A stretch of 22,185 nt of DNA from a virus (Duplodnaviria > Heunggongvirae > Uroviricota > Caudoviricetes): IMG/VR virus record IMGVR_UViG_2606217102_000016. One strand, 5' to 3'. The notes beneath the pieces are model-generated. The model made no database searches and had not been told where the DNA came from. It was given only the letters and a program-made list of their open reading frames with translations. How positions within the stretch are numbered: the first letter of the stretch is position 1; each line of letters begins with the position of its first letter. Below are positions 4,301 through 19,450 of the stretch, in pieces. A program made the position numbers and the translations under genes.

Positions 4301-4516
4301 TCACTTTCTTAAATCTAACGATAGACGGCTAACATTTAAGTATTGTGAAATATTATCAAATGTAATCATCATTGATTTACAAAAGATACATTTTGCCCCG
4401 AAAGGATTCCTGTCAGAAACATCAAAAGATGATGTTCTATACTGAGAACCATGGCAACACGGGCATCTAAAGTGAATATGGTTTGTAATATTTTCTACCT
4501 CAAAGTGCCACAACAT
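4301..4516 (-). CDS. Candidate small zinc-ribbon protein (71 aa)
   Basis: Translation [71 protein letters not shown] has two Cys pairs (CPCC...CIFC), a zinc-ribbon-like pattern. The ATG at 4516 overlaps the cspI 3' end by 17 nt in another frame, there is no strong SD, and a terminator follows immediately. I recall small zinc-binding proteins annotated in Qin but cannot confirm identity. Confidence 0.3.
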
Positions 4517-4712
4517 GAACAGCCGCGGGGCCTTTAGGTCCGTTCTCAATACCAAATTCGACTTCCTGATTCTCAGTTAACGTTTTGAAATCGTTGCTCT
4601 GAATAGCTGAGAAATGGACAAACACATCTTTGCTACCATCTTTCGGCGTGATGAAACCAAAACCTTTTTCAGGGTTAAACCATTTCACTAAACCAGTCAT
4701 TTTGTTAGACAT
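4500..4712 (-). CDS. cspI: Cold-shock protein, CspA family (70 aa)
   Basis: Translation [70 protein letters not shown] contains the RNP1/RNP2 cold-shock motifs (KGFGFI, VFVHF). A tandem ATG at 4715/4712 is preceded by an AAGG SD. A long AT-rich upstream region (4716..5075) is consistent with the long 5'UTR typical of csp genes. Confidence 0.9.
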
Positions 4713-5075
4713 CATTATTACCTTTTGAAGAAGTTAGCCCTTGGGCAGAATGGTCCGAAAAAAAATATCAGAGAGAAAAACCAACAAGGAAATCTCAAGA
4801 GGTACAAATAATAAAATTATAACAATGACTGCTTCAGATAATTTTGTAACAAACCAGAACACCATTAACGCATGATTAACCAACCATAGCAAGGATTACT
4901 TTTGTAAAGAAAAACACACGAATGAAACAATAGCTTTATTTATTAATAAAACGTGTCATTCTGTCTAATGATCTTTTATCTTACCCTTAAGATTTCAAGG
5001 ATTTTGACTCATGGAAGAGTCCTTTTTATTTAAATTTCACATTCAGCGCTAAAAATAATCCGATTTAATATTAAT

Positions 5076-6103
<1,028 letters not shown>

Positions 6104-6477: not shown

Positions 6478-6976
6478 CTTCAATGCAATAATCGTAAAAC
6501 GCCGCAAACTGCTCATCGCGGCGTTTTTTTTCATCTTCAGAAGGAATCAGCACCGACAATTTTTTATTCAGATCAGCGACGCTGCCCTCCAGTTTTTCAA
6601 TGGGCGATTCAATATCATCTTTTTCTGACCGCAATGCCGTCGGTGGCGTCTTCAGAGAACCAGTAATTCTTCCCGGTAGCTTTCCTTTGTAGGTTATCCA
6701 CACATTCTGCGCCTCTAAAATTATGGGGCGCTTTTCCGGCGACTGCTCATCCCCTTCACATAACCCGGCAGCAACATCCAGGAAGACCTGTCTGATGCTC
6801 CTTCTGGCTGCTGCCTCATAAAACTCCAGCGCGGCACCTTCAACACGGTCCAGCGAGATGTCCAGGTCAAAAATTTCACCGTCAAAGTGTTTTTTGTCCC
6901 GTAAGGCTACAGTTACCGCCACTTTATTCTCAAAATTGCGAACTCCTTTCACAACCAGTTCATAGTCTTGAGTCAT
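6425..6976 (-). CDS. Hypothetical protein between holin and endolysin (183 aa)
   Basis: ATG at 6976 lies 5 nt after the holin stop, with a GAGAG SD. The position is that of ydfR in Qin, but this protein is longer than I remember YdfR to be. No motif recognised. Confidence 0.6.
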   Translation of the reverse strand: MTQDYELVVKGVRNFENKVAVTVALRDKKHFDGEIFDLDISLDRVEGAALEFYEAAARRSIRQVFLDVAAGLCEGDEQSPEKRPIILEAQNVWITYKGKLPGRITGSLKTPPTALRSEKDDIESPIEKLEGSVADLNKKLSVLIPSEDEKKRRDEQFAAFYDYCIEVTRRNFVKIFEEGKSLQ

Positions 6977-6980
6977 TGGA

Positions 6981-7196
6981 TTACTCTCTTCTCGCAACCT
7001 TACGCCTGTCTTCTTTAATCTTGAAATAAAGGTTTGTCAGATACGTCAGCATGCCAAATACCAGACTACCCAATACACCTATTGCCGCCCACTGTGAGGG
7101 CGTGACTTTATCGAGCAACTGTAAAAACCAGTAGCCAGCACTGCCTGCAGAGGTGCTGTAGGCGATGCCCGTTGTTAACTTATCCATGGATTTCAT
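6981..7196 (-). CDS. Class II holin / pinholin (phage 21 S-like), dual-start motif
   Basis: Translation [71 protein letters not shown] (71 aa) closely matches my memory of S21/EssQ. Two starts (M1 at 7196, M4 at 7187) give the antiholin/holin pair. A strong SD GGAGGTGAGG precedes it. The track ORF 6981..7280 is an in-frame upstream extension. Confidence 0.85.
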
Positions 7197-7286
7197 AGCC
7201 TCACCTCCGCAGATAACGGATGGTGTACACGGTTTGGTTCGAAGAAGGAAAGAAGTTACATTAGCGTAAGGCCCGAACATCTATTC

Positions 7287-7317
7287 AAAAAGAAAAACGC
7301 CAGCAATTATTCTGGCG
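7287..7317 (-). terminator. Candidate rho-independent terminator downstream of the AraC-family gene
   Basis: On the minus strand CGCCAG-AATAATTG-CTGGCG is followed by TTTTTCTTTTT. It lies 70 nt downstream of the AraC-family gene stop and ~90 nt upstream of the holin start. Confidence 0.5.
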
Positions 7318-7386
7318 TAGCTAAAAATATCGTATAATCTTACACTTCAAAAAATAACTTTATAAAATACCATCACATCATATCTT

Positions 7387-8100
7387 CTAAGAAAATCTTG
7401 ATAAATATTGGCGCGGAGGCACACCAAAATATCCTCTAAAAACACTTACAAAATATGATGCATTGTCATACCCGCATATTCCCGCCACCTTGCCGACAGT
7501 ATGGTTACTGTAGATCAATAATCTTTGCGCCATCATCATTCGTTCTTCAAGAATTAATTTACTAAACGATAATCCTTCGTCTTTTAATTTTCTTTTTAAC
7601 AAACTCTCGCTCATATATAATCTTGAAGATATATCACAAAGTCTCCATGACGCTGAGATATCCGAGTGAATAATAGCCTTAACTTTACAACCTAAGCTAT
7701 TAAGACTTCCGAACAAAAAACTTTGCACTATTTTCTCTGAAGATAAGACAGCAAGACATGCAAGTGATATTTGATTTCTAACTACATCCACGGTTTTGCT
7801 ATCACAATTCAAGCATGCAACCAAGTTCCTTAACAATGAAAAATCTTCACATTCTACTATCAAGTATGACGGATAAAACCTTCTTACAGAAAAAGGTGAG
7901 AGTGTGTAGTTTTTAAAGAAATCATTAACTGTTTTCTCCTCAACATCTACGATCATTAGATGATCTGTATTTGACGAAAAAAGATCTTTTAAATTGTATT
8001 CAATGAGGACAGCATTTCCTTTTTTAAACAAAATATCTTCTTTACCAATTCGGACACCAAACGAGTTCAACACCAAAATGATAGAACATATGTATGGCAT
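7387..8100 (-). CDS. AraC/XylS-family transcriptional regulator (cargo gene)
   Basis: The C-terminal ~100 aa carry the two AraC-type HTH units (...WRLCDISSRLYMSESLLKRKLKDEGLSFSKLILEERMMMAQRLLIYSNHTVGKVAGICGYDNASYFVSVFRGYFGVPPRQY). The gene is very AT-rich. ATG at 8100 with an AGGTGG SD; the track start at 8109 is GTG. Confidence 0.8.
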   Translation of the reverse strand: MPYICSIILVLNSFGVRIGKEDILFKKGNAVLIEYNLKDLFSSNTDHLMIVDVEEKTVNDFFKNYTLSPFSVRRFYPSYLIVECEDFSLLRNLVACLNCDSKTVDVVRNQISLACLAVLSSEKIVQSFLFGSLNSLGCKVKAIIHSDISASWRLCDISSRLYMSESLLKRKLKDEGLSFSKLILEERMMMAQRLLIYSNHTVGKVAGICGYDNASYFVSVFRGYFGVPPRQYLSRFS

Positions 8101-8506
8101 ATTATCCACCTGATATCATTGGGGTTACACCAGGTAAGTATAGGTGGAAAATCAATATTCGCCAGTTCAACAATAAGGAAAATCTCATTGCATCACAACT
8201 ATAAAACCATGTGTTTAACTCACAAAAAACAAATCATTAAACTAATCTGTTATATTATAATAGCTGCGTGCAATAATAATATTATATGCTCTTAATATTC
8301 ACTTGAAATATCTTCATATAAAAACAGATTGAATAAAATCTTTTGGGGCTGGTATGTTTACCAACATTAAATTGCATCTCAATGTTTTCTTTAGCGTGAA
8401 CAGGATTTTTATACAAACTGACACTATGGGCATCATAGCGTAGTTTTTACGATTGTAAATATCCTGCATACAGGAACTCATCACTTTCAGATGATATCGC
8501 ATACAG

Positions 8507-9466
8507 TTAATTCACCATCAGTCTTAGAGCCAGTTCTTCCGGATAGGGATCGAAGTAATTCTGTGTAAGCAAGTAATCATTAGGATACTCACCCAGATAA
8601 TGCTTCAGCAGAGTCAACGGCGCAAGAAGAGGCAATGTGCCAAAGCGATAGTTAAGTATAACCTCGCTCAACTCTTTACGCTGGCGTGTACTTAAGTAAT
8701 TACTAAAATACCCCTGTATATGCATCAGCACATTCGTGTGATTTTTACGTGATGCTGGTTTTCTGAGAATCGCCATCAGATTATCACGATACACCTCAAA
8801 GTATGATTCAAGGTCCGCCCACTCGTGTATTGCAGCCACAAATGGTCCCATATCTTTATAGCCTGCCTGGCTATGCGCCAACAACTGAAGCTTATAACGA
8901 CTATGAAAAGCTAATAACTCTCTTCTTGATAATTTCTCCTTGTAAAGATGATTGAGCTCATGCAAAGCAAAAACTCTTTCAATAAAATTCTCACGAAGCA
9001 CTGGATCATGTAATCGCCCATCCTCTTCAACCGGTAGCCAGGAAAACTTTTCCATCAAAGTGCTCGTAAATAGTCCCACTCCATCTTTACGACCTCGATT
9101 ACCATTTTCATCATAGACACGCACGCGCTCCATGCCACAGCTGGGAGATTTAGCACAAACCACAAACCCCGATACATCCTTTAATTTGTCCATATAAGAA
9201 CGACTAAACTCTGTCATTCTCTCTGTCACATCCTCATTCTGGTCGTGGCTGAAACACATCCGTATATTTCCTTGCTTCGAGCGCACAAGTCGTAGAGCAG
9301 GACGCGGAACTGGCAGCCCTATAGCCATTTCCGGACATACTGGTCTGAATGTTACCCATTCCACTAATTTGTCCATTAAAAAGTCATCTCTTTTGTGACC
9401 ACCATCAAAACGAACAGCAGAACCGCCCAAACAACCGCTGATCCCAATCACAGGTTTTTTTATCAT
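8507..9466 (-). CDS. DUF523 (TudS-like, putative 4Fe-4S) + DUF1722 (YbgA-like) two-domain protein (cargo gene)
   Basis: The N-terminus MIKKPVIGISGCLGGSAVRFDGGHKRDDF... has the DUF523 Cys-containing signature as I remember it from TudS/YbbK-like proteins. The C-terminal half is alpha-helical and of DUF1722 size. ATG at 9466 with a GGAGG SD. Confidence 0.7.
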   Translation of the reverse strand: MIKKPVIGISGCLGGSAVRFDGGHKRDDFLMDKLVEWVTFRPVCPEMAIGLPVPRPALRLVRSKQGNIRMCFSHDQNEDVTERMTEFSRSYMDKLKDVSGFVVCAKSPSCGMERVRVYDENGNRGRKDGVGLFTSTLMEKFSWLPVEEDGRLHDPVLRENFIERVFALHELNHLYKEKLSRRELLAFHSRYKLQLLAHSQAGYKDMGPFVAAIHEWADLESYFEVYRDNLMAILRKPASRKNHTNVLMHIQGYFSNYLSTRQRKELSEVILNYRFGTLPLLAPLTLLKHYLGEYPNDYLLTQNYFDPYPEELALRLMVN

Positions 9467-9658
9467 TTCCTCCCCCTTGACTAATTCATTAACACATAAA
9501 CTTTGTAGTGCACGGACTAAATTGCCTTTCTGGCTTCATCACTGACAATTTTTCTGTTATTGACTATTCCTAATATAGTAGGAAAGTTCTTTAAGTGATC
9601 GGTCGTACTCATCTATCTTTCATACTTACTCTCAACTATCAAAAGTACAGGATTTATT

Positions 9659-10183
9659 ATGAAGTTATGGCCTGTGTTGACTGGCATTGCACTCTCTTTC
9701 ACTCTTATAGCATGTAAGGCCCCGACACCACCTAAAGGTGTGCAGCCGATTACAAATTTTGACGCCAACCGCTACCTCGGAAAATGGTATGAAATAGCTC
9801 GCCTCGAGAACTGGTTCGAACGTGGTCTGGAACAGGTCAGCGCTACTTATGAAAAACGGAACGACGGAGGGATTCGCGTACTTAACCGTGGATACGATCC
9901 AACGAAAAACAAATGGAGCGAGAGCGAAGGTAAAGCATACTTTACTGGAGATACTAAAACTGCAGCGTTGAAAGTTTCGTTTTTTGGCCCCTTCTATGGT
10001 GGCTATAATGTAATCAAACTGGATGATGAGTATAAGTATGCTCTTGTCAGTGGTCCGAACAGAGAATACCTATGGATTCTGGCAAGGACCCAAACTATTC
10101 CAGATAATGTAAAAGCAGACTATGTGCGTACCGCTCAAAAGTTGGGATTCAATGTCAATGAACTATTATGGGTTAAACAATAA
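9659..10183 (+). CDS. Bacterial lipocalin, Blc-like outer-membrane lipoprotein (cargo gene)
   Basis: Translation has a lipoprotein signal with lipobox LIAC, then NFDANRYLGKWYEIARLENWFERGLEQVSATY...KAYFTGDTKTAALKVSFFGPFYGGYNVIKLDDEYKYALVSGPNREYLWILARTQ, which parallels E. coli Blc motif for motif but is clearly divergent (a paralogue, not the chromosomal blc). Confidence 0.85.
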   Translation: MKLWPVLTGIALSFTLIACKAPTPPKGVQPITNFDANRYLGKWYEIARLENWFERGLEQVSATYEKRNDGGIRVLNRGYDPTKNKWSESEGKAYFTGDTKTAALKVSFFGPFYGGYNVIKLDDEYKYALVSGPNREYLWILARTQTIPDNVKADYVRTAQKLGFNVNELLWVKQ

Positions 10184-10211
10184 AATCCCCACCCGAAATG
10201 ATACTTATTAG

Positions 10212-10238
10212 AAAAAAACCAGCCTTTGGGGAGGCTGG
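10212..10238 (-). terminator. Candidate tR'-like intrinsic terminator ~100 nt downstream of Q
   Basis: On the minus strand CCAGCCT-CCCCAA-AGGCTGG is followed by TTTTTTT. It lies between the Q stop (10339) and the convergent lipocalin gene. An A-run on the other side makes it potentially bidirectional. Confidence 0.5.
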
Positions 10239-10338
10239 CTAAATCAGGAAACAAGCTGTTATATGATAATAACTACGTTGCGATTCCAACATTTAAAATG
10301 TTAGACTAATGAAAATCAGACAGCAACTTTTCCTTTAA

Positions 10339-10716
10339 TTATTTCGAACAATCAGCATCCATCTCCAATCGGAGATCCAACACCATCAGCATGCCCTCCA
10401 CTACGCCCTCAGCTTTCTGGAGCATCCTGCCAACCCAACAATCAGATCGCCCATGCTTACGTGCAAGCGCCATAAAAGTCATGCCGCCGACATAATAGTC
10501 CACCAATAAATCATGTAAATCGCTGTTGTTTTTTTTCAGGCGAGCCATACATTCACAAATGATCATCGCGTCATCGTCACAGCATTGCGGACGAGATCTT
10601 ACTTTTGAAGGAATTAATCCCTTAAAACCGGCGGCAATGGACGACCAGGTCACATCTTCATGATTATTAGCCGCCCATGCCCCCCAACGCTCAAGAACCA
10701 TCTGAATATCACGCAT
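10339..10716 (-). CDS. Late-gene antiterminator Q (QuuD/QuuQ-like)
   Basis: Translation from the ATG at 10716, [88 protein letters not shown]..., matches the lambdoid Q family of E. coli cryptic prophages as I remember it. The track start at 10731 is TTG. Confidence 0.8.
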
Positions 10717-10733
10717 CAACTTACTCCACAAAA

Positions 10734-11783
10734 TTAGGCCAGCACACCAATTGCCAGCGCGCGATCGATAAATCGAAAAATCAGCTCCAGTTGGGAGCCA
10801 TACTTCTCTTCAAATGCCACGGTATCCGTATGCAACTCGTCGTGATGCTTTCTGCACAAAGGCAAAACAAAGAGATCATGTGCTTTGGTTCCCATTCCGC
10901 CTTGCCCGTGACCAATCAGATGATGCGGATCGTCGGCTGGCATACCGCAGCAAGCACACGGCTGTGTCTTAACCCAGCGTGTGTATTTCTCCTTAACCCA
11001 CCGGTGACGTTTAGGCAGCTTCATGAAAGATTCCGGAGACTCTGGATCAACGGTGATGCTTACCACCGTCTTTTCCTGTGATGGGTTTTGTTGGTGGTGG
11101 GCGTGAGGCAACGGTGCAAGATTTTTTGTGCGCTGTTTCAATATGCTGGTGGCGGTCTGCTCTCCCGGTACGATGTCGCTTTCGCGGTACACCGAGCAGA
11201 TTTTTTCCGCTGGTAATCCCAGCGAGCGACGTAATACCGCTTCCGGTAGCGCGTCCGCCAGCTGATTGCGGACCGCCCACCAGGATAATTCAGCCAGAGA
11301 TAATTCACGCTCCTGCGTACCGCTTATTGCGTGACCGATGACGTCAATCATCCATGCTGACAGGTTTTGATGAGCAAGTTGCTCGAGTGATTCGGATGTC
11401 TGGTCACGCAGCTGGTTGTCGCAGTGCCAGCACAACACCATTGCGCCGGTACCATATCGGTGAATAACGGTTTCGCTGTGATGATAATCGCCGTGTGGCC
11501 ACTGGCAGGATTTAATATGGCGCAACAGCCAGTCAGACAATGCACCAGCACCACCAGCAGCACGAATTACCCGTGCGTTACTGAAAAACGGCAGCAATGT
11601 TTTGTCTTCCACCAGCGGCTGGCGAACGGCAGGAACGACCCCGGACGGCAGATTACGCATGCTTTTCGGTTCCGGCTCCACCAGTACCCGGGTATTGTGG
11701 AATACCGGCATGGATTCACGGCCCGGCTTAACGACCACCAGCCCGAGTTCCGGTACCAGAACAGGTCGAAGTAATACCCGCAC
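10734..11783 (-). CDS. DUF968-family protein (YdfU/YbcN-like) with a C-terminal Cys/His cluster
   Basis: 349 aa. GTG start at 11783 with a strong SD GGAGGT; an alternative ATG lies at 11711. The C-terminus [18 protein letters not shown]...[10 protein letters not shown] looks like a zinc-binding or HNH-like motif. Size and position (between Q and hok) match Qin ydfU as I recall it. Confidence 0.7.
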
Positions 11784-11784
11784 G

Positions 11785-12063
11785 TTACCTCCAGATGCGT
11801 TGCTGGAATGTACGGGACGGACGCGGTGGGCGTTCGGAGTAAGGCAATCTGACTGAGATTATCCAGTGACGGTAGTCGAGACTAAGGGCTTTCTTAACCT
11901 CGTATCCGCGCCTGCGGTAACACTGAATTATCCATTCAGCCTGCTCTTCAGTGCATGGAGGGTGTTGGAACCATTCAGACTTGAATGCGTGAGAATACCG
12001 CTCGTGCGTGCAGACAAGAACGGGCGAATTATCAGAATTGTAATATTTTACGTTGCGTGCCAT
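11785..12063 (-). CDS. Hypothetical protein (92 aa), Cys/His-containing
   Basis: ATG at 12063 with a GGAG SD; the stop abuts the DUF968 start. Translation MARNVKYYNSDNSPVLVCTHERYSHAFKSEWFQHPPCTEEQAEWIIQCYRRRGYEVKK... No family recognised with confidence. Confidence 0.5.
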   Translation of the reverse strand: MARNVKYYNSDNSPVLVCTHERYSHAFKSEWFQHPPCTEEQAEWIIQCYRRRGYEVKKALSLDYRHWIISVRLPYSERPPRPSRTFQQRIWR

Positions 12064-12129
12064 CGGTTTTCTCCGGTGGCACGGTGTTACTCAGCGGGAG
12101 TTCAGCCCCGCGCAAGATTGTAGATGAGT

Positions 12130-12381
12130 TTATTCTTCTGCAAAAGCTGAAAAGCCTGCTTTTATTCCGATCTCTTTCAGTGCCTGTAATGAAGTGACAA
12201 ACTCACCTTCGCGCAAGATAAATCCGTCTGTCACTCGACCATCCACAAAATTAATTAACGCAGCCCCATTCTTTCGCAAACACATAATGCGGTAATGACT
12301 AACAAGATTTCCATTTTCAACGCACACAGCATAGAGGCCATCTTCACAAAAATTTTTACGCAGTTCTTCGATGTTCATCAT
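12130..12381 (-). CDS. Hypothetical protein (83 aa); possibly the Rem equivalent by size and synteny
   Basis: ATG at 12381 with a GGAAGGA SD. It is 83 aa and sits immediately upstream, in operon sense, of the hok locus, as rem does in Qin. The sequence itself is not recognised. Confidence 0.5.
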   Translation of the reverse strand: MMNIEELRKNFCEDGLYAVCVENGNLVSHYRIMCLRKNGAALINFVDGRVTDGFILREGEFVTSLQALKEIGIKAGFSAFAEE

Positions 12382-12500
12382 CAGAATCCTTCCGGATAAT
12401 TAGCTCTCCCCTTTAAGGGACCATCCCTCTTATCCCTGCGCGCTACTTAAGTATTTTTGATTCTATTCCGGCACCGTCCAGAACTTCAAACGCGTTGAAA

Positions 12501-12530
12501 ATAAAAACAAAAACCCGCCGAAGCGGGTTA
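12501..12530 (-). terminator. Rho-independent terminator at the 3' end of the hok transcript
   Basis: On the minus strand AACCCGC-TTCG-GCGGGTT is followed by TTTTGTTTTTATTTTC, about 70 nt downstream of the hok stop. Confidence 0.6.
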
Positions 12531-12597
12531 AGTGCGGGTGCGTTGAGGATGCCTGCCACATCAGAGGTGGCGAGGGATTTCTCCCCCGCCGGGTCTC

Positions 12598-12753
12598 TTA
12601 CTCCTCAGGTTCGTAAGCTGTGAAGACAGCGACCTCCGTCTGCCCGGTTCGGATTCGTACCTCGCAGAGGTCTTTCCTCGTTACCAGTGCCGTCACTATG
12701 ACGGTTAAACAGATGACGATCAGGGCGATTAACATCGCCTTTTGCTGCTTCAT
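12598..12753 (-). CDS. hokD: Hok-family type I toxin (51 aa membrane peptide)
   Basis: Translation MKQQKAMLIALIVICLTVIVTALVTRKDLCEVRIRTGQTEVAVFTAYEPEE is a textbook Hok/Gef peptide and near-identical to HokD/RelF as I remember it. SD AAGGAGAAG. The track ORF 12598..12810 is an in-frame 19-codon upstream extension. Confidence 0.85.
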   Translation of the reverse strand: MKQQKAMLIALIVICLTVIVTALVTRKDLCEVRIRTGQTEVAVFTAYEPEE

Positions 12754-12874
12754 AGCCTGCTTCTCCTTGCCTTTCGGCACGTAAGAGGCTAACCTACATA
12801 TGTCTAGCATGAAATTGGCCTCAGATTAATGTTAAGCGTCTTGCAGGACGCGTAATGTTAACTGGGGCTTTTCT

Positions 12875-12910
12875 CTATCTGCCGTTGGTGTTCATGCCCG
12901 AGGCAGATAG
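12875..12910. promoter_or_regulatory. Inverted repeat in the hok leader region (candidate mRNA 5' structural element or Sok target region)
   Basis: CTATCTGCC (12875..12883) pairs with GGCAGATAG (12902..12910) across an 18-nt loop, ~120 nt upstream of the hok ATG on the transcribed strand. hok mRNAs are known to carry extensive 5' secondary structure; the specific element is not assigned. Confidence 0.3.
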
Positions 12911-13427
12911 CCTCAAGCACCCGCAGCCATTCTACTTAACTACCGTTACCTCGCCAATGTGAAATCAGTCAGAAAGGCGATCCATAAGAACAATAGCAAG
13001 ACAATAAATCGCCATTACAGCCGTAATAGCCAGCGCACATTTGAGAACCAGCACCACAACCTCCTGTATTGGACGTAGACCAGTCCTGATGAATATGAGG
13101 CTGTCTCGTCAGTGATTCAATACAACTATTGGGTATAGTTTCTCTGATTTTTTCTGTGGAAATGGGGCACAACCACTAGTCACCACCAGCACTTCTTTTA
13201 ATACGCAAAGTCCGACACAAGCTAACCTTCTAGTCCGCTTTGAGCGAAAAACAGCCATAATTTAGTGCCACGTATATAATGATAGAGCTATTCAAGCTAG
13301 CAATTCACATGTAAAAATTCAGAGGGTAGAAGCACATAGTTATAAATGTTGGCTCCATCGACAAATTGCGGTCTCAAGTACATTTATTAATGTTGCCCCC
13401 GCATTAACAAATCATCAAGGTGACGAC

Positions 13428-15215
13428 ATGGACGATATTAATATCAGCCTCGACGAACTTAACACTATTGATTTATCCCCCTTAATCCAGAGTAAGCTGC
13501 CAGTTACCTGCTTTGATATCACAAAGTATCTTTCTAGCCTAGGTGATGGAAGAGCGGAGATAAGACTGCTAACCCATATTTGCGGTTTTCACTTTCGTCC
13601 CGAAAATCCACAGGTACCATTTGGTCCGTGCTTTCAAAGCAGCCAAGGTAGATCTGCAATTCCGGATGACATTAACGGGTTGTCGCTGGAGGTACTTTCT
13701 CAATTTTGCCCGACGATAGAGCTACCCGAACTTCAAGCTCGTATTGCTGATACACTTTGGGTTCGTAAAATTGGTGGAATCCGTTTTCCTTTGCTGGCAG
13801 TCCGTGCTTATTATGCGTCCAGTATAGCTATTATGACATCGCAAGGGACGTGGGTTAGTGCTTTAGAACGCCTAGAGCGTGCGCTTAGGCTGTGTTGTTT
13901 TTTTCGAAAGCATACTGATTTCAGGGATGAATTTGATCAGCTTTCGGCACATCTACTAGCAGAGTATGAACGTACCAGAGAACAAGGCGATTCACCTTAT
14001 CCGCTGCGACTCCTGCAACTCGATATCGACTGTAAAGTGAGTGAGCCATCTTTTATTGCCCAGGAACTCCTGTTTCTGACAAAAAACTATCTGGCTCAAA
14101 AATTATTTTCATTTGCCGTCGATGCCTGTAAAACCGCAATCCCGATTGCGAATAGGTGCTGTGACAGAGATACACAGTTTGAATTCTGGCGGCTTCTTGC
14201 CGATACACATCTGGAAGAGTCAAAATTCCAAGATGGCGGTATGATTTCGGCAGCCTGCATGCAGAATGCTATTGAAGCACTGGCTAATATTCCAGGAACC
14301 CGAATAGAACGTCTTGCGCTGTATGAAGAAATGCGTGATTACCAAATCGAATCCCGTCACCAGATGTCTATCCTTCAGTCTCCCCCTCAAGATATTAGTG
14401 AGATTGTCCATCAAGCCAAGAGTCGGGTAGTCGGAAGAGATTTGTTTGATATGGTTTTCAGACTTGCGATGCTGGTCTGTCGGCCAACCAGCATTGAGAG
14501 ACTTAAGGCTCAAGCAATAGAACAAAAGGCCAACAGCATAGCTTGGATGTTTGGATCAACACATATTGATCATGAGGGAATGACACTTGCTCGCATACCC
14601 GCAGGATTGGGGATTGATGATGCAAATGGGGCAGTTATTTGGCCCATAATGATGACGAGAATGCGTATCGACCATGAGTTGGCAGTAGCTGGGCAAATTA
14701 TTCCTGCTACAGATGAGATCACAATGAAATATCCAATCTCGGAGGCGTTTTTTCGCGATATGTTCATCAATCATCCCTTCATCCCGTTTGGGCATGAAGA
14801 GTTTTTCATCAAGGGTATGGTTTGCGGTTTCAATGGAGATTTTATGACGGCATGCCACGTGTTGATTCCCCAGCTCGAAAATAGTCTGAGATATGTGGCT
14901 AAAATTAAAGGTGAGGAACCATCGCAGCTTCACGGGGACGGTTCGCAAGAGCGAAATGGACTCAAGGGATTACTAGATAATCCACTGATTATTGAAGCTT
15001 TCGGCGTAGACATAATTGGCAATCTTCAGGCCTTACTGGTAGATAAAATCTATGGTGATTTACGAAATCAACTAGCTCACGGATATGTGCCTGCCGGTTA
15101 CTACAACCAACCTCCCTGCATTTTTGCATGGTGGCTTGTATTGCACATTCTAATGAACCCTACGGCGAGATACTGGCAAGCCACTTATGGCCAAGAGAGT
15201 GAGGCTCAGACTTAA
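13428..15215 (+). CDS. Large orphan protein (595 aa) with a C-terminal HEPN-like Rx4H motif; candidate defence or abortive-infection moron
   Basis: Long ORF with ATG at 13428 and SD AAGGTGA 7 nt upstream. It is on the opposite strand to every flanking prophage gene and is bounded by non-coding DNA on both sides. No P-loop is visible. Near the C-terminus, ...DKIYGDLRNQLAHGYVPAG... fits the HEPN R-x4-6-H consensus. No other domain recognised by eye. Confidence 0.8.
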   Translation: MDDINISLDELNTIDLSPLIQSKLPVTCFDITKYLSSLGDGRAEIRLLTHICGFHFRPENPQVPFGPCFQSSQGRSAIPDDINGLSLEVLSQFCPTIELPELQARIADTLWVRKIGGIRFPLLAVRAYYASSIAIMTSQGTWVSALERLERALRLCCFFRKHTDFRDEFDQLSAHLLAEYERTREQGDSPYPLRLLQLDIDCKVSEPSFIAQELLFLTKNYLAQKLFSFAVDACKTAIPIANRCCDRDTQFEFWRLLADTHLEESKFQDGGMISAACMQNAIEALANIPGTRIERLALYEEMRDYQIESRHQMSILQSPPQDISEIVHQAKSRVVGRDLFDMVFRLAMLVCRPTSIERLKAQAIEQKANSIAWMFGSTHIDHEGMTLARIPAGLGIDDANGAVIWPIMMTRMRIDHELAVAGQIIPATDEITMKYPISEAFFRDMFINHPFIPFGHEEFFIKGMVCGFNGDFMTACHVLIPQLENSLRYVAKIKGEEPSQLHGDGSQERNGLKGLLDNPLIIEAFGVDIIGNLQALLVDKIYGDLRNQLAHGYVPAGYYNQPPCIFAWWLVLHILMNPTARYWQATYGQESEAQT

Positions 15216-15312
15216 AGTGAATAAGTTTACGAAGTTGGCACTTCCGGATGCATGTCCATATGAGTTGAGGCGATTTGGTTAATAAGGTTGAGTGCTGCTG
15301 AAATTATTCGAT

Positions 15313-15336
15313 GTCCGCTTTTGGCACAAAGCGGAC
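15313..15336. terminator. Strong hairpin between convergent genes, no U-tract (possible bidirectional terminator or processing site)
   Basis: GTCCGCTTT-TGGCAC-AAAGCGGAC is a perfect 9-bp stem with a 6-nt loop. It lies ~100 nt after the 595-aa gene stop and ~100 nt after the convergent 15434..15835 gene stop. Confidence 0.35.
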
Positions 15337-15433
15337 AACCACGCCAGATCTACCCTGTGCCATGAAAAATGAGAATGTCAATTCACTCCTGAACTAATGC
15401 TTTTTAATCTAGTAACGTCTAAAATACCTAACA

Positions 15434-15835
15434 TTATCCCTGATAAAATGCCAGTATGCGCTGCATAACTTCACTCATCCGGCACTCGCGACAGATTATG
15501 TTTAGGCGACTGTCGTAGCGACGTATTTCTCCATCAGGTAACGACCAGATAACGTCCGGATCAACCACAGCTGTTTTCTTCACCTTTGCCCTCGAGAGTT
15601 TTTTGCGGGCGTTTTGCCAGTCCTTACGCGCCTGTTCAGACGGGAATAACCCGTAGCCGGAGTTGTATACATCGCCACTGGCTACCAGCTCTCTGGCAAG
15701 AACGCTCATCAGATATCTAGTCGCACCTGTTTTAGCTTCCAGTTGCCGTAACGTCTCACGACCGCTCTGGCGCACGAGTTCCACCACCTGCCCTTTAATT
15801 TTTTCCCGCTCTTCTTGTGTAAAAACTTTTGCCAC
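15434..15835 (-). CDS. Hypothetical protein (133 aa), last gene of the early-right block
   Basis: GTG start at 15835 with a strong SD AAGGGGGA 4 nt upstream. Translation VAKVFTQEEREKIKGQVVELVRQSGRETLRQLEAKTGATRYLMSVLARELVASGDVYNSG... No Walker motifs, so it is not a DnaC/P-type helicase loader. Confidence 0.6.
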   Translation of the reverse strand: MAKVFTQEEREKIKGQVVELVRQSGRETLRQLEAKTGATRYLMSVLARELVASGDVYNSGYGLFPSEQARKDWQNARKKLSRAKVKKTAVVDPDVIWSLPDGEIRRYDSRLNIICRECRMSEVMQRILAFYQG

Positions 15836-18964: not shown

Positions 18965-19450
18965 AACTGTGGTGATTTTAAGGATACCACCTCGCCTGAC
19001 GTGGTTAAAAGCAGGCACACAACACGAAAGCGCACGGCGAAGTTCGTCTCACTGTACGGTGTCGTTAAATTTAATTCGACCGTGCGCTTCCGGTTGTGGC
19101 AGCCCGCAAAATGGCGCGGCGGTAAGTATGGCGGGGTTATTCCTTCCCCGTTGAGGACACCGAGTTGTCAGGTTGACCATACGCTTAAGTGACAACCCCG
19201 CTGCAACGCCCTCTGTTATCAATTTTCTGGTGGTGTTTGGCGGTATCAGTTTTACTCCGTGACTGCTCTGCCGCCGTTTTTAAAGTGAATTTTGTGATGC
19301 GGTGAATGCGGCTAAGCGCACGCGGAACAGTTAAAACCAAAAACAGTGTTATGGGTGGATTCTCTGTATCCGGCGTTAATTGTTAACTGGTTAACGTCAC
19401 CTGGAGGCACCAGGCACTGCATCACAAAATTCATTGTTGAGGACGCGATA

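Follow-up and report, generated by a model that had tools for sequence, protein, structure and literature searches.

Several single-gene systems have been described that resemble the locus studied here. The closest is PDC-S39, a single-gene 'phage defence candidate' that is classed as 'untested' and whose prediction came from its position inside BREX, DISARM or type I RM loci, or 'guilt by embedding' (Payne et al. 2024, bioRxiv 10.1101/2024.01.29.577857). The DUF4209 domain (Pfam PF13910, named 'EMARD_N' in the precomputed Pfam annotations, PF13910.12) has been assigned to the HEPN superfamily, within the C6orf70 family. HEPN domains of this type occur in fusion with TPR and in operons related to RM, the family was predicted to be catalytically active, and its eukaryotic members, which are membrane-anchored, ER-associated and conserved since LECA, have a predicted role in RNA processing (Anantharaman et al. 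2013, PMC3710099). In the gpA-gpQ anti-phage hotspot of P2, the site of old and tin, DUF4209 is system #13, the 13th most common, with 193 occurrences; a representative, the 'Putative HEPN' carried by pFR103, was cloned under its native promoter and tested against eight coliphages, and the authors list it with the additional systems that they tested and not with those that they validated (Rousset et al. 2022, PMC9122126). To this tested but not validated system we could trace the only experiment on a member of the family.

A better understood solo HEPN protein is HepS, from the Salmonella prophage Gifsy-1. HepS is not toxic in its resting state; a phage structural protein switches it on, and it then cuts tRNA anticodon loops and aborts infection. 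Its action is specific to siphophages and leaves co-resident prophages unharmed, and its homologues were defined as proteins of at most 250 aa with no other domains (Sargen et al. 2026, PMC13043305). Four further HEPN systems were validated in the DefensePredictor work; in the accessible part of that report, the list of newly implicated DUFs includes neither DUF4209 nor DUF7380, and some overlap is possible. Our literature searches found no experiment on the protein analysed here or its close relatives, no positive defence test of PDC-S39, and no mention of DUF7380, of WP_021514655, or of ERMARD together with HEPN.

Family membership and domain architecture

The window, that is, the whole stretch of DNA analysed in this work (22,185 nt), contains in a Qin-like E. 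coli prophage an ORF of 595 aa, which starts with ATG and occupies 13428..15215 of the plus strand. A preliminary description, made from the sequence, had presented it as a long, well-initiated orphan gene that could be assigned to no named family. The ORF is real, and RefSeq has an identical CDS labelled 'DUF4209 domain-containing protein'; the gene is, however, neither an orphan nor unnamed. A PADLOC check of the protein returned the PDC-S39 HMM (E 2.9e-102 and 2e-101), with residues 43-581 aligned to profile positions 54-602 of 615, and a family profile retrieves 8063 cluster representatives, 3212 of them at E <= 1e-30, from bacteria and an archaeal plasmid. As judged from these profile matches, the protein is a further member of a large, already catalogued candidate anti-phage family, and a full-length one, with the order DUF7380, TPR-like region and DUF4209/HEPN. 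Both Pfam domains were matched in 37 of the 37 aligned homologues (E <= 0.01), the system is a single gene as in PDC-S39, and nothing structural separates the protein from the family. The difference lies in the setting: PDC-S39 is defined by RM-type embedding, whereas the copy studied here sits in the cargo slot of a lambdoid prophage and not inside an RM system. No match was obtained in NCBIfam, and in PHROGs the protein matched only the 'unknown function' families 5183 and 31613.

The profile search against Pfam that the preliminary description had proposed placed both domains above their curated cutoffs. DUF7380 (PF24098, E 3.4e-34) covers residues 4-166 (13437..13925, plus strand), scoring 118.6 bits against a gathering cutoff of 27, and its near-invariant residues in the homologue alignment include R105, D108 and W111. 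The DUF4209 match (33.9 bits against a cutoff of 22.3) spans residues 484-573, within a predicted HEPN fold at residues 472-594 (14841..15209, plus strand). A TPR-like helical repeat region, at approximately residues 119-312 (13782..14363, plus strand), may be a sensor or regulatory module. The structure predictions, made on monomers, were confident (pLDDT 90.7 and 87.5). In fold searches, the middle region matched TPR proteins and the C-terminal model matched HEPN toxins, Csm6, AbiA, RnlA/LsoA and AbiV, with MtlR, sacsin, Roquin and Las1 also among the matches. A PDB sequence search gave nothing meaningful for the single protein and only weak TPR matches for the family profile, and nothing significant came out of a viral fold search in BFVD.

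The HEPN proposal of the preliminary description was built on the sequence GDLRNQLAHGY, which corresponds to residues 543-553, and on the absence of a P-loop from the 595-aa protein; both are as claimed. It had also warned that a single Rx4H match could arise by chance, and for the bare pattern the warning was justified, since Rx4-6H occurs four times in the protein against 2.9 occurrences expected, which is not above chance. The match gains meaning only from the invariance of R546 and H551 among the homologues: these two residues and G552 are kept in all 37 sequences, which share 23-97% identity. The predicted catalytic Rx4H motif, R546-N-Q-L-A-H551 (15063..15080, plus strand), aligns with LRHKLAHG of the P2-hotspot relative. 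Also conserved is the motif PQLENSLR (residues 481-488; 14868..14891, plus strand), located in a long helix of the HEPN domain, in which Q482, E484 and R488 are invariant and P481, N485 and S486 are kept in at least 90% of the sequences (n = 37). The features that characterize the HEPN superfamily, an all-helical fold with a four-helix up-and-down bundle and a conserved Rx4-6H usually with a polar residue after the R, were found in the model and in the sequence (R546-N), respectively. The assignment of DUF4209 to this superfamily, the invariant R546 and H551 and the fold matches of the predicted structure all indicate that the C-terminus of the protein is a genuine HEPN nuclease-type domain, as far as sequence and model can tell.

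Among the named systems, the P2-hotspot protein (ORF612 of P2-EC46) is a member of the family along its whole length: hhalign gave an alignment of 585 columns (probability 100%, E 1e-52) that includes the R-x4-H motif. Full-length family members occur in that hotspot, and ORF612 itself matches PDC-S39 (E 8.5e-85 and 2e-67) and likewise stands as a lone gene in a hotspot for prophage cargo, although it shares only ~19-24% identity with our protein and comes from another phage family and another slot. With HepS the protein shares a solo HEPN organization without a partner, the Rx4-6H motif, and a place, behind the replication genes, in the accessory region of a lambdoid prophage. However, HepS-type proteins are smaller than 250 aa and carry their motif at R100-H105, while the protein studied here has 595 aa with DUF7380 and a TPR-like region ahead of its C-terminal HEPN; it falls outside the HepS family, and HepS is an analogue, not a homologue. 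What HepS does show is that the abortive logic of a solo HEPN is workable in a lambdoid prophage. The HEPN-MNT toxins (SO_3166, PDB 5yep; 7ae2; 8xdj) and the HEPN of Csm6 have 6-13% identity to the protein. Unlike them, our system has neither an adjacent MNT antitoxin nor a CARF domain, and control would have to be exerted in cis through the N-terminal two-thirds; a search for an MNT nucleotidyltransferase gene found none in the cassette described below, nor beside five distant homologues. The likeness to the C6orf70/ERMARD family comprises a DUF4209 above cutoff, the conserved Rx4H, and the TPR and RM-type neighbourhoods of the 2013 description. In contrast to the eukaryotic proteins, the bacterial one is soluble-looking and horizontally mobile, and has the extra N-terminal DUF7380. 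GAPS1, which was considered for the Vibrio homologues, is a PD-(D/E)xK protein and is unrelated.

The gene and its cargo cassette

As the preliminary description had noted, the gene is opposite in strand to all its flanking genes: hokD (12598-12753) on one side, and a DUF977 gene (15434-15835) and, farther out, the replication genes on the other, are all on the minus strand. The non-coding DNA in which it was said to be isolated proved in part functional, as the upstream gap holds the hok leader and the sok RNA (Rfam RF01794, 12748-12922, 112.7 bits). The Shine-Dalgarno sequence AAGGTGA is present as claimed (13417..13423, plus strand), 4 nt ahead of the ATG, and is kept in two other genomic contexts. 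Further upstream, a candidate -10 hexamer, TATAAT (13275..13280, plus strand), is retained in all three contexts of the cassette, and we infer from the sequence that it belongs to the gene's own promoter, which would have a weak -35. A consensus promoter/terminator scan called nothing upstream or downstream of the gene, the TATAAT being passed over because its -35 scores below 4 of 6. Attention had also been drawn to an inverted repeat, TTAATG-N9-CATTAA (13387-13407), but it did not hold up: its arms are only 6 bp, it is disrupted in both other copies of the cassette, and we have rejected it as a conserved or regulatory site. It is probably due to chance.

The 595-aa gene is a swappable cargo cassette of this Qin-like prophage. 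The cassette (13251..15310, plus strand; 2060 bp) replaces other cargo at the same site in related prophages. Homology to O111:H21 strain 15A stops at 13250 and restarts at 15311, and in 15A the place of the cassette is taken by HAD and NUDIX genes; in K-12 Qin, relBE is found upstream of hokD in place of the cassette region. The slot, which is bounded by hairpins, has at least eight further arrangements among prophage contigs, including a SIR2-Ham1-adenosine deaminase cluster. The stretch 13235-15336 recurs on a Klebsiella IncF plasmid with 96.5% identity, and 13241-15336 recurs on a further contig (L074) with 91.9%. The GC content of the cassette is not distinct from that of its flanks. Strain BLR(DE3), which was considered as a clean empty site, was rejected, as it has a deletion joining 13077 to 15539. 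Within the cassette, 177 nt precede the CDS and 95 nt follow it, which leaves no room for a partner gene, and no other ORF of at least 40 aa is present there outside the CDS. A moron, as reportedly defined by Juhala and colleagues in 2000, is a gene that brings its own promoter and terminator and has been inserted between two genes that are neighbours in related phages. For our gene, insertion and replacement at a fixed slot were observed, the conserved TATAAT lacks a full sigma-70 consensus, and the flanking hairpins lack T-runs and were not called as terminators; its preliminary description as single-gene cargo in a variable prophage slot is borne out by the other cargo found at the same site.

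How widespread is the gene? It is present in ~150 of 5426 complete E. coli genomes (2.7%), intact and unpartnered, whereas the hok/sok flank is present in 4367 of the 5426. This disparity, together with the copies of the cassette that lack hok on Klebsiella plasmids and in another prophage, leaves the suggested functional link to the adjacent hok toxin without support. A 97%-identical copy is carried by Klebsiella conjugative plasmids, and IS-disrupted copies exist, which fits a dispensable accessory gene. A homologue with 39% identity lies between Q and the holin gene of an Enterobacter prophage. The neighbourhoods examined, those of five distant homologues, had no conserved neighbour. Homologues adjoin CBASS genes and IS elements, a NERD-UvrD helicase gene, or a gene of the DUF4238 family, which has been validated against T7 (Rousset et al. 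2022, PMC9122126); elsewhere a homologue and a DNA methyltransferase gene overlap, and one homologue on an archaeal plasmid lies close to a restriction endonuclease gene.

Proposed function and alternative explanations

What could be the role of this protein in the prophage? The same slot also carries cargo that plainly does not look like defence (HAD, NUDIX, GNAT, LysR, NmrA-like and MFS genes), so location alone is weak evidence for a defence role. It is the match to PDC-S39 and the defence-type genomic contexts of the relatives that make defence a plausible role, at the level of a candidate, in agreement with the preliminary description. On balance we lean towards the protein being a single-chain, prophage-borne immune or abortive-infection candidate. 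We propose that DUF7380 and the TPR-like region would be the sensor or autoinhibitory part and the C-terminal HEPN (DUF4209) the effector. If it works like the characterised HEPN nucleases, the protein would dimerise, and the two R546-x4-H551 motifs would together make up a metal-independent RNase site that stays shut until some phage component is detected. The site would then cut RNA (tRNA, mRNA or rRNA), so that translation halts and the infection is aborted. The gene, a self-contained cassette with a promoter region of its own, is antisense to the prophage early operon, and expression in the lysogen is therefore expected.

Of the alternatives, the one that survives best, improbable as we consider it, is that the protein is a weapon against other mobile elements (competing temperate phages, satellites or plasmids) that panels of lytic phages would miss. 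Its carriage by lambdoid and P2-like prophages and by conjugative plasmids, the P2-hotspot relative that was not reported to protect against eight phages, and the siphophage specificity of HepS with its sparing of co-resident prophages are all consistent with such a role, although mechanistically this would be a sub-case of the abortive-infection explanation with another trigger. Still less probable is a lysogenic-conversion or housekeeping factor acting in RNA processing or regulation, comparable to Las1 or C6orf70/ERMARD, or a non-catalytic HEPN as in MtlR. The metabolic and regulatory cargo of the slot, the DUF4209 shared with a eukaryotic family predicted to act in RNA processing, and the presence of MtlR, sacsin, Roquin and Las1 among the fold matches would suit this view; but the R, the H and the polar residue after the R (R-N) are invariant, as in a catalytic signature, the C6orf70 family was itself predicted to be catalytically active (Anantharaman et al. 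2013, PMC3710099), and the patchy, horizontal distribution (2.7% of E. coli, plasmids, IS-flanked loci and phage hotspots) resembles that of a conflict gene. The least probable reading is a selfish stabilising toxin, in which an HEPN RNase, restrained in cis by the N-terminal part of the same chain or else by some unrecognised small RNA, would kill or arrest cells that lose or damage the element and would thereby favour upkeep of the prophage or plasmid, not defence against phages: HEPN-MNT toxins are the closest structural matches (7ae2, 5yep, 8xdj), the gene adjoins the hok/sok addiction module where K-12 Qin has relBE, it is also on conjugative IncF plasmids, and pFR103 has no reported defence phenotype, but the cassette lacks an antitoxin gene, the homologues have no neighbour in common, the ~150 complete genomes carry the gene intact and on its own, one long-lived protein alone cannot give post-segregational killing, and the embedding of homologues with RM, CBASS and DUF4238 genes points to immunity.

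If PDC-S39 proteins do defend, a very large family (the 3212 representatives at E <= 1e-30) would gain a function, another self-contained sensor-plus-HEPN immune protein would be added to those described, and a prokaryotic model would become available for the HEPN domain of human ERMARD (C6orf70). For such work the window offers a compact construct of ~2.1 kb with the native promoter region, and clear sites for point mutants at R546, H551 and E484.

Boundary hairpins of the cassette

Two 24-nt hairpins bound the cassette. The right one (15313..15336), GTCCGCTTT-TGGCAC-AAAGCGGAC, has a perfect 9-bp stem and a 6-nt loop, which confirms the downstream hairpin of the preliminary description; it is not followed by a T-run and was not called by the terminator scan. 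It lies at the edge of the slot and is common to prophages with other cargo, and is thus not private to the 595-aa gene. In the left hairpin (13233..13256), GTCCGCTTT-GAGCGA-AAAACAGCC, the 3' arm is decayed in the window; the same hairpin is perfect in O111:H21 15A and compensated (GGCCGC...GCGGCC) in the Klebsiella plasmid. With up to three mismatches allowed, GTCCGCTTT-N6-AAAGCGGAC has two matches in the window and none in 100 shuffles. In a genome-wide scan for the stem, most matches fell in unrelated Alphaproteobacteria, in some cases with several copies on one contig; the stem sequence alone is therefore not diagnostic, and no matching hairpins were found around the distant homologues.

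A broader proposal, which we put forward as speculative and rather unlikely to hold in full, is that PDC-S39 is a widespread one-protein sensor-effector RNase immune family, kin to the ERMARD/C6orf70 HEPN, which in E. coli lambdoid prophages would also ride a hairpin-delimited cassette site of a new kind, the paired 24-nt GTCCGCTTT-N6-AAAGCGGAC, exchanging whole cargo genes between prophages and conjugative plasmids. The hairpin-bounded slot is in any case a separate lead on the exchange of accessory genes between prophages and plasmids.

A HEPN protein of a catalogued candidate family

The gene at 13428-15215 (plus strand) is a real ORF for 595 aa, annotated identically in RefSeq, with the Shine-Dalgarno sequence reported in the preliminary description and an orientation opposite to that of its neighbours. 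It had been regarded as an orphan. Judged from its sequence, it is instead a new member of PDC-S39, a PADLOC family of single-gene phage defence candidates with DUF7380/DUF4209 architecture (Payne et al. 2024, bioRxiv 10.1101/2024.01.29.577857). The PADLOC search gave a full-length PDC-S39 match (E 3e-102), and Pfam recognised DUF7380 at residues 4-166 (E 3e-34) and DUF4209 at residues 484-573 (33.9 bits, cutoff 22.3). A word-indexed search retrieved 69 homologues from Enterobacteriaceae, Vibrio, Shewanella, Aeromonas, Pseudomonas and other genera, and the family profile had 8063 matches at E <= 1e-3 among 1.84 billion cluster representatives, 3212 of them at E <= 1e-30; the best 150 matches are 554-673 aa long, and nearly all of these cover almost the whole profile.

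A HEPN domain had been proposed from the peptide GDLRNQLAHGY, found here at residues 543-553, with the caution that a lone Rx4H could be a chance match. The caution was appropriate: the protein contains four Rx4-6H matches where 2.9 are expected by chance, so the motif by itself proves nothing. The proposal itself is borne out, since DUF4209 is a HEPN family and the motif is invariant. Seven residues, G384, Q482, E484, R488, R546, H551 and G552, are invariant across 37 aligned sequences (23-97% identity); with R546 and H551 among them, this is the one conserved Rx4H of the protein, and it is accompanied by a conserved PQxENSxR helix. DUF4209 has been placed in the HEPN superfamily as the C6orf70 family, which is fused to TPR repeats, occurs in RM-related operons and is predicted to be catalytically active (Anantharaman et al. 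2013, PMC3710099). As had been claimed, the protein lacks a P-loop.

Structure comparison gave scores of 8.7 with AF0298 (2hsb), 8.6, 8.5 and 8.0 with the HEPN-MNT toxins 7ae2, 5yep and 8xdj, 8.2 with Csm6 (6tug), 7.4 with AbiA (8oz7), 6.9 with the sacsin HEPN domain (3o10), 5.0-5.3 with RnlA and LsoA, and 4.9 with AbiV. The resulting domain order is DUF7380, TPR-like solenoid, helical linker with a small beta-hairpin, and HEPN, and we hold with high confidence that the protein has a HEPN fold with a catalytic-type site.

A hairpin-bounded cargo slot in the prophage

The window is a Qin-like lambdoid prophage of Escherichia coli whose insertion site adjoins rspAB/ynfA, and the annotation of strain CFSAN061763 covers an identical stretch. 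Its genes run, in order, from portal and terminase through the lysis genes to Q, ydfU, rem, hokD and the gene described here, followed by DUF977, a replication protein, YdaT, DicC/DicA, DicF, dicB and the integrase. Two Rfam matches are standard features of Qin-type prophages: the DicF small RNA at 19225-19276 (plus strand), and at 4454-4870 (minus strand) a cspA-type thermoregulator leader that precedes cspI, the cold-shock gene of the prophage.

Comparison with other genomes shows, at the sequence level, that the gene is cargo of a variable region. K-12 Qin, which has relB-relE, ydfV and flxA upstream of hokD, shares sequence with the window as far as 12767 and from 17064 onwards, and the prophage of O111:H21 strain 15A matches the window up to 13250 and again from 15311, with HAD and NUDIX hydrolase genes in between. 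The resulting cassette (13251-15310) holds only the gene in question, with 95 nt of downstream sequence and 177 nt upstream, in which the TATAAT at 13275-13280 is conserved. The upstream gap had been described as non-coding, which stands in part, because the hok leader and the sok RNA (12748-12922, minus strand; Rfam, 112.7 bits) lie inside it. A 6-bp inverted repeat at 13387-13407, previously pointed out, is broken in both other copies of the cassette and is probably a chance sequence.

The least expected result, missed on first reading, is that this slot between the replication module and hokD bears the same 24-nt hairpin at both edges, with the stem GTCCGCTTT/AAAGCGGAC. The right hairpin (15313-15336, loop TGGCAC) is the 9-bp hairpin already described; the left one (13233-13256, loop GAGCGA) is decayed in the window. 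The window has no further match, shuffled sequences gave none, and the stem is conserved in sequence beyond mere pairing. The pair recurs at 5460-5483 and 6926-6949 of contig L015, and at 6807-6830 and 8886-8909 of L016, the Klebsiella pneumoniae IncFIB/FII plasmid NZ_CP031801.1.

The same left/right pair encloses at least eight other arrangements in IMG/VR prophage contigs, making at least nine in all. Apart from copies of our gene interrupted by IS elements, the cargoes are HAD plus NUDIX; a cluster of SIR2, Ham1 and adenosine deaminase genes; a 310-aa protein with an RSKAVH motif at its end; GNAT, together with an XRE-type regulator in one arrangement and with LysR in another; an NmrA-like protein with an HxlR-like regulator; and an MFS transporter block. 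The three-gene SIR2 cluster, present with an HTH regulator in L030 (reverse strand 9550-13039), L073 and L083, encodes a ThsA-like SIR2_2 protein (PADLOC E 9e-32), a CARF_ADA-like adenosine deaminase (PADLOC E 1e-35) and a Ham1/ITPase-family protein, and looks like an uncharacterised nucleotide-targeting defence candidate. The 310-aa protein (L051, 4984-6211; L069, 3265-4492), of no known family and with no Pfam or PADLOC match, ends in LYDYRSKAVHGG, an R-x4-H-G motif resembling that of HEPN proteins, and may be a second, unrecognised HEPN cargo.

Copies of the cassette occur on Klebsiella IncFIB/FII conjugative plasmids (96.5% identity) and next to umuDC in a different prophage, L074 (92%); in both, the two hairpins are where homology to the window begins and ends. 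In L016 the copy (6807-8909) has a group II intron reverse transcriptase on one side and an IS110 transposase on the other, with umuDC and an anti-restriction gene nearby. A 97%-identical protein is encoded on at least 12 Klebsiella plasmids, which indicates recent transfer between prophage and plasmid.

The hairpins could be recombination sites, RNA ends or protein-binding palindromes; a terminator scan of the window did not call them, and they have no T-run. An identical 9-bp stem with variable 6-nt loops was found by contig scanning in many unrelated Alphaproteobacteria (L094, L113, L149 and others), with several copies on some contigs, such as those of a Pseudolabrys MAG and an unclassified Proteobacteria MAG. 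There it looks like a REP-like repeat, so the stem sequence by itself lacks specificity for the E. coli slot. In the available 1166 nt of prophage contig L046 (reverse strand, about 77-142) a right-type hairpin is followed about 18 nt on by a left-type one, the reverse of the order around cargo; this could be a tandem-cassette junction, or an empty or rearranged site.

Genomic contexts and a possible role in defence

Joint action with the adjacent hok had been suggested. About 148 of 5426 complete E. coli genomes carry the gene and 4367 have the hok/sok flank, which argues against functional coupling. In the window (12598-12922, minus strand) hokD has an intact hok-type leader with the sok antisense RNA; because homology to K-12 Qin ends just upstream, at 12767, the sequence there differs between the two prophages, and so, probably, does hokD control.

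A conflict or defence role is, on balance, favoured by genomic context in several independent places. Full-length family members, among them ORF612 of P2-EC46 and, in phage vB_EcoM-569R9, a protein of 643 aa, sit in the P2 hotspot where old and tin lie, between gpA and gpQ (hhalign probability 100%, E 1e-52; PDC-S39 in PADLOC, E 1e-67 to 1e-85), and 'DUF4209' is system #13 there, with 193 occurrences (Rousset et al. 2022, PMC9122126). In an Enterobacter kobei prophage, Q and the holin gene flank a 39%-identical homologue. Other homologues are flanked by IS elements and adjoin CBASS genes, directly precede a gene of the DUF4238 family, which is validated against T7 (Rousset et al. 2022), stand beside a 1677-aa NERD-UvrD protein, overlap a large DNA methyltransferase gene (Chlorohelix plasmid) or lie near a restriction endonuclease (haloarchaeal plasmid). 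PDC candidates were themselves defined through embedding in BREX, DISARM or type I RM loci (Payne et al. 2024). Against such a role, a P2-type member cloned as pFR103, 'Putative HEPN', is tabulated with the additional tested systems and not with those that were validated (Rousset et al. 2022), implying no reported protection against eight coliphages; our literature search on the family found no paper with a positive anti-phage test.

In V. cholerae (L003-L006, 10001-12440) a 45%-identical homologue and a 160-aa protein form a two-gene islet, inserted with a TauE-like gene on one side and carB on the other. The 160-aa protein belongs to no known family and has no PADLOC match, and its gene is absent from the E. 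coli cassette.

Proposed mechanism and expression

In the single protein that the cassette encodes, the N-terminal two-thirds are TPR-like and the C-terminal HEPN domain carries the invariant Rx4H. By analogy with Csm6, RnlA, HEPN-MNT toxins and HepS, we tentatively propose that the HEPN domains would dimerise to form an RNase site, which the N-terminal part would hold off until a phage product is sensed; RNA cleavage by the activated site would then abort infection. Such a specific sensor-effector mechanism, drawn from established HEPN biology, is possible but the less probable part of our reading. The antisense orientation and the gene's own putative promoter suggest expression in the lysogen, and we speculate that read-through from the induced early operon might damp the gene during the prophage's own lytic cycle.

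Two E. coli matches (H24 and H25) have an IS3-family insertion within the matched region and two partial CDS annotated. By ORF inspection, without a database match, L075 has an IS3-family element upstream of the gene, and in L058 a two-gene IS21-family-like insertion, also assigned by ORF inspection only, cuts the protein to 553 aa. IS elements in or beside the gene fit a dispensable or costly accessory gene.
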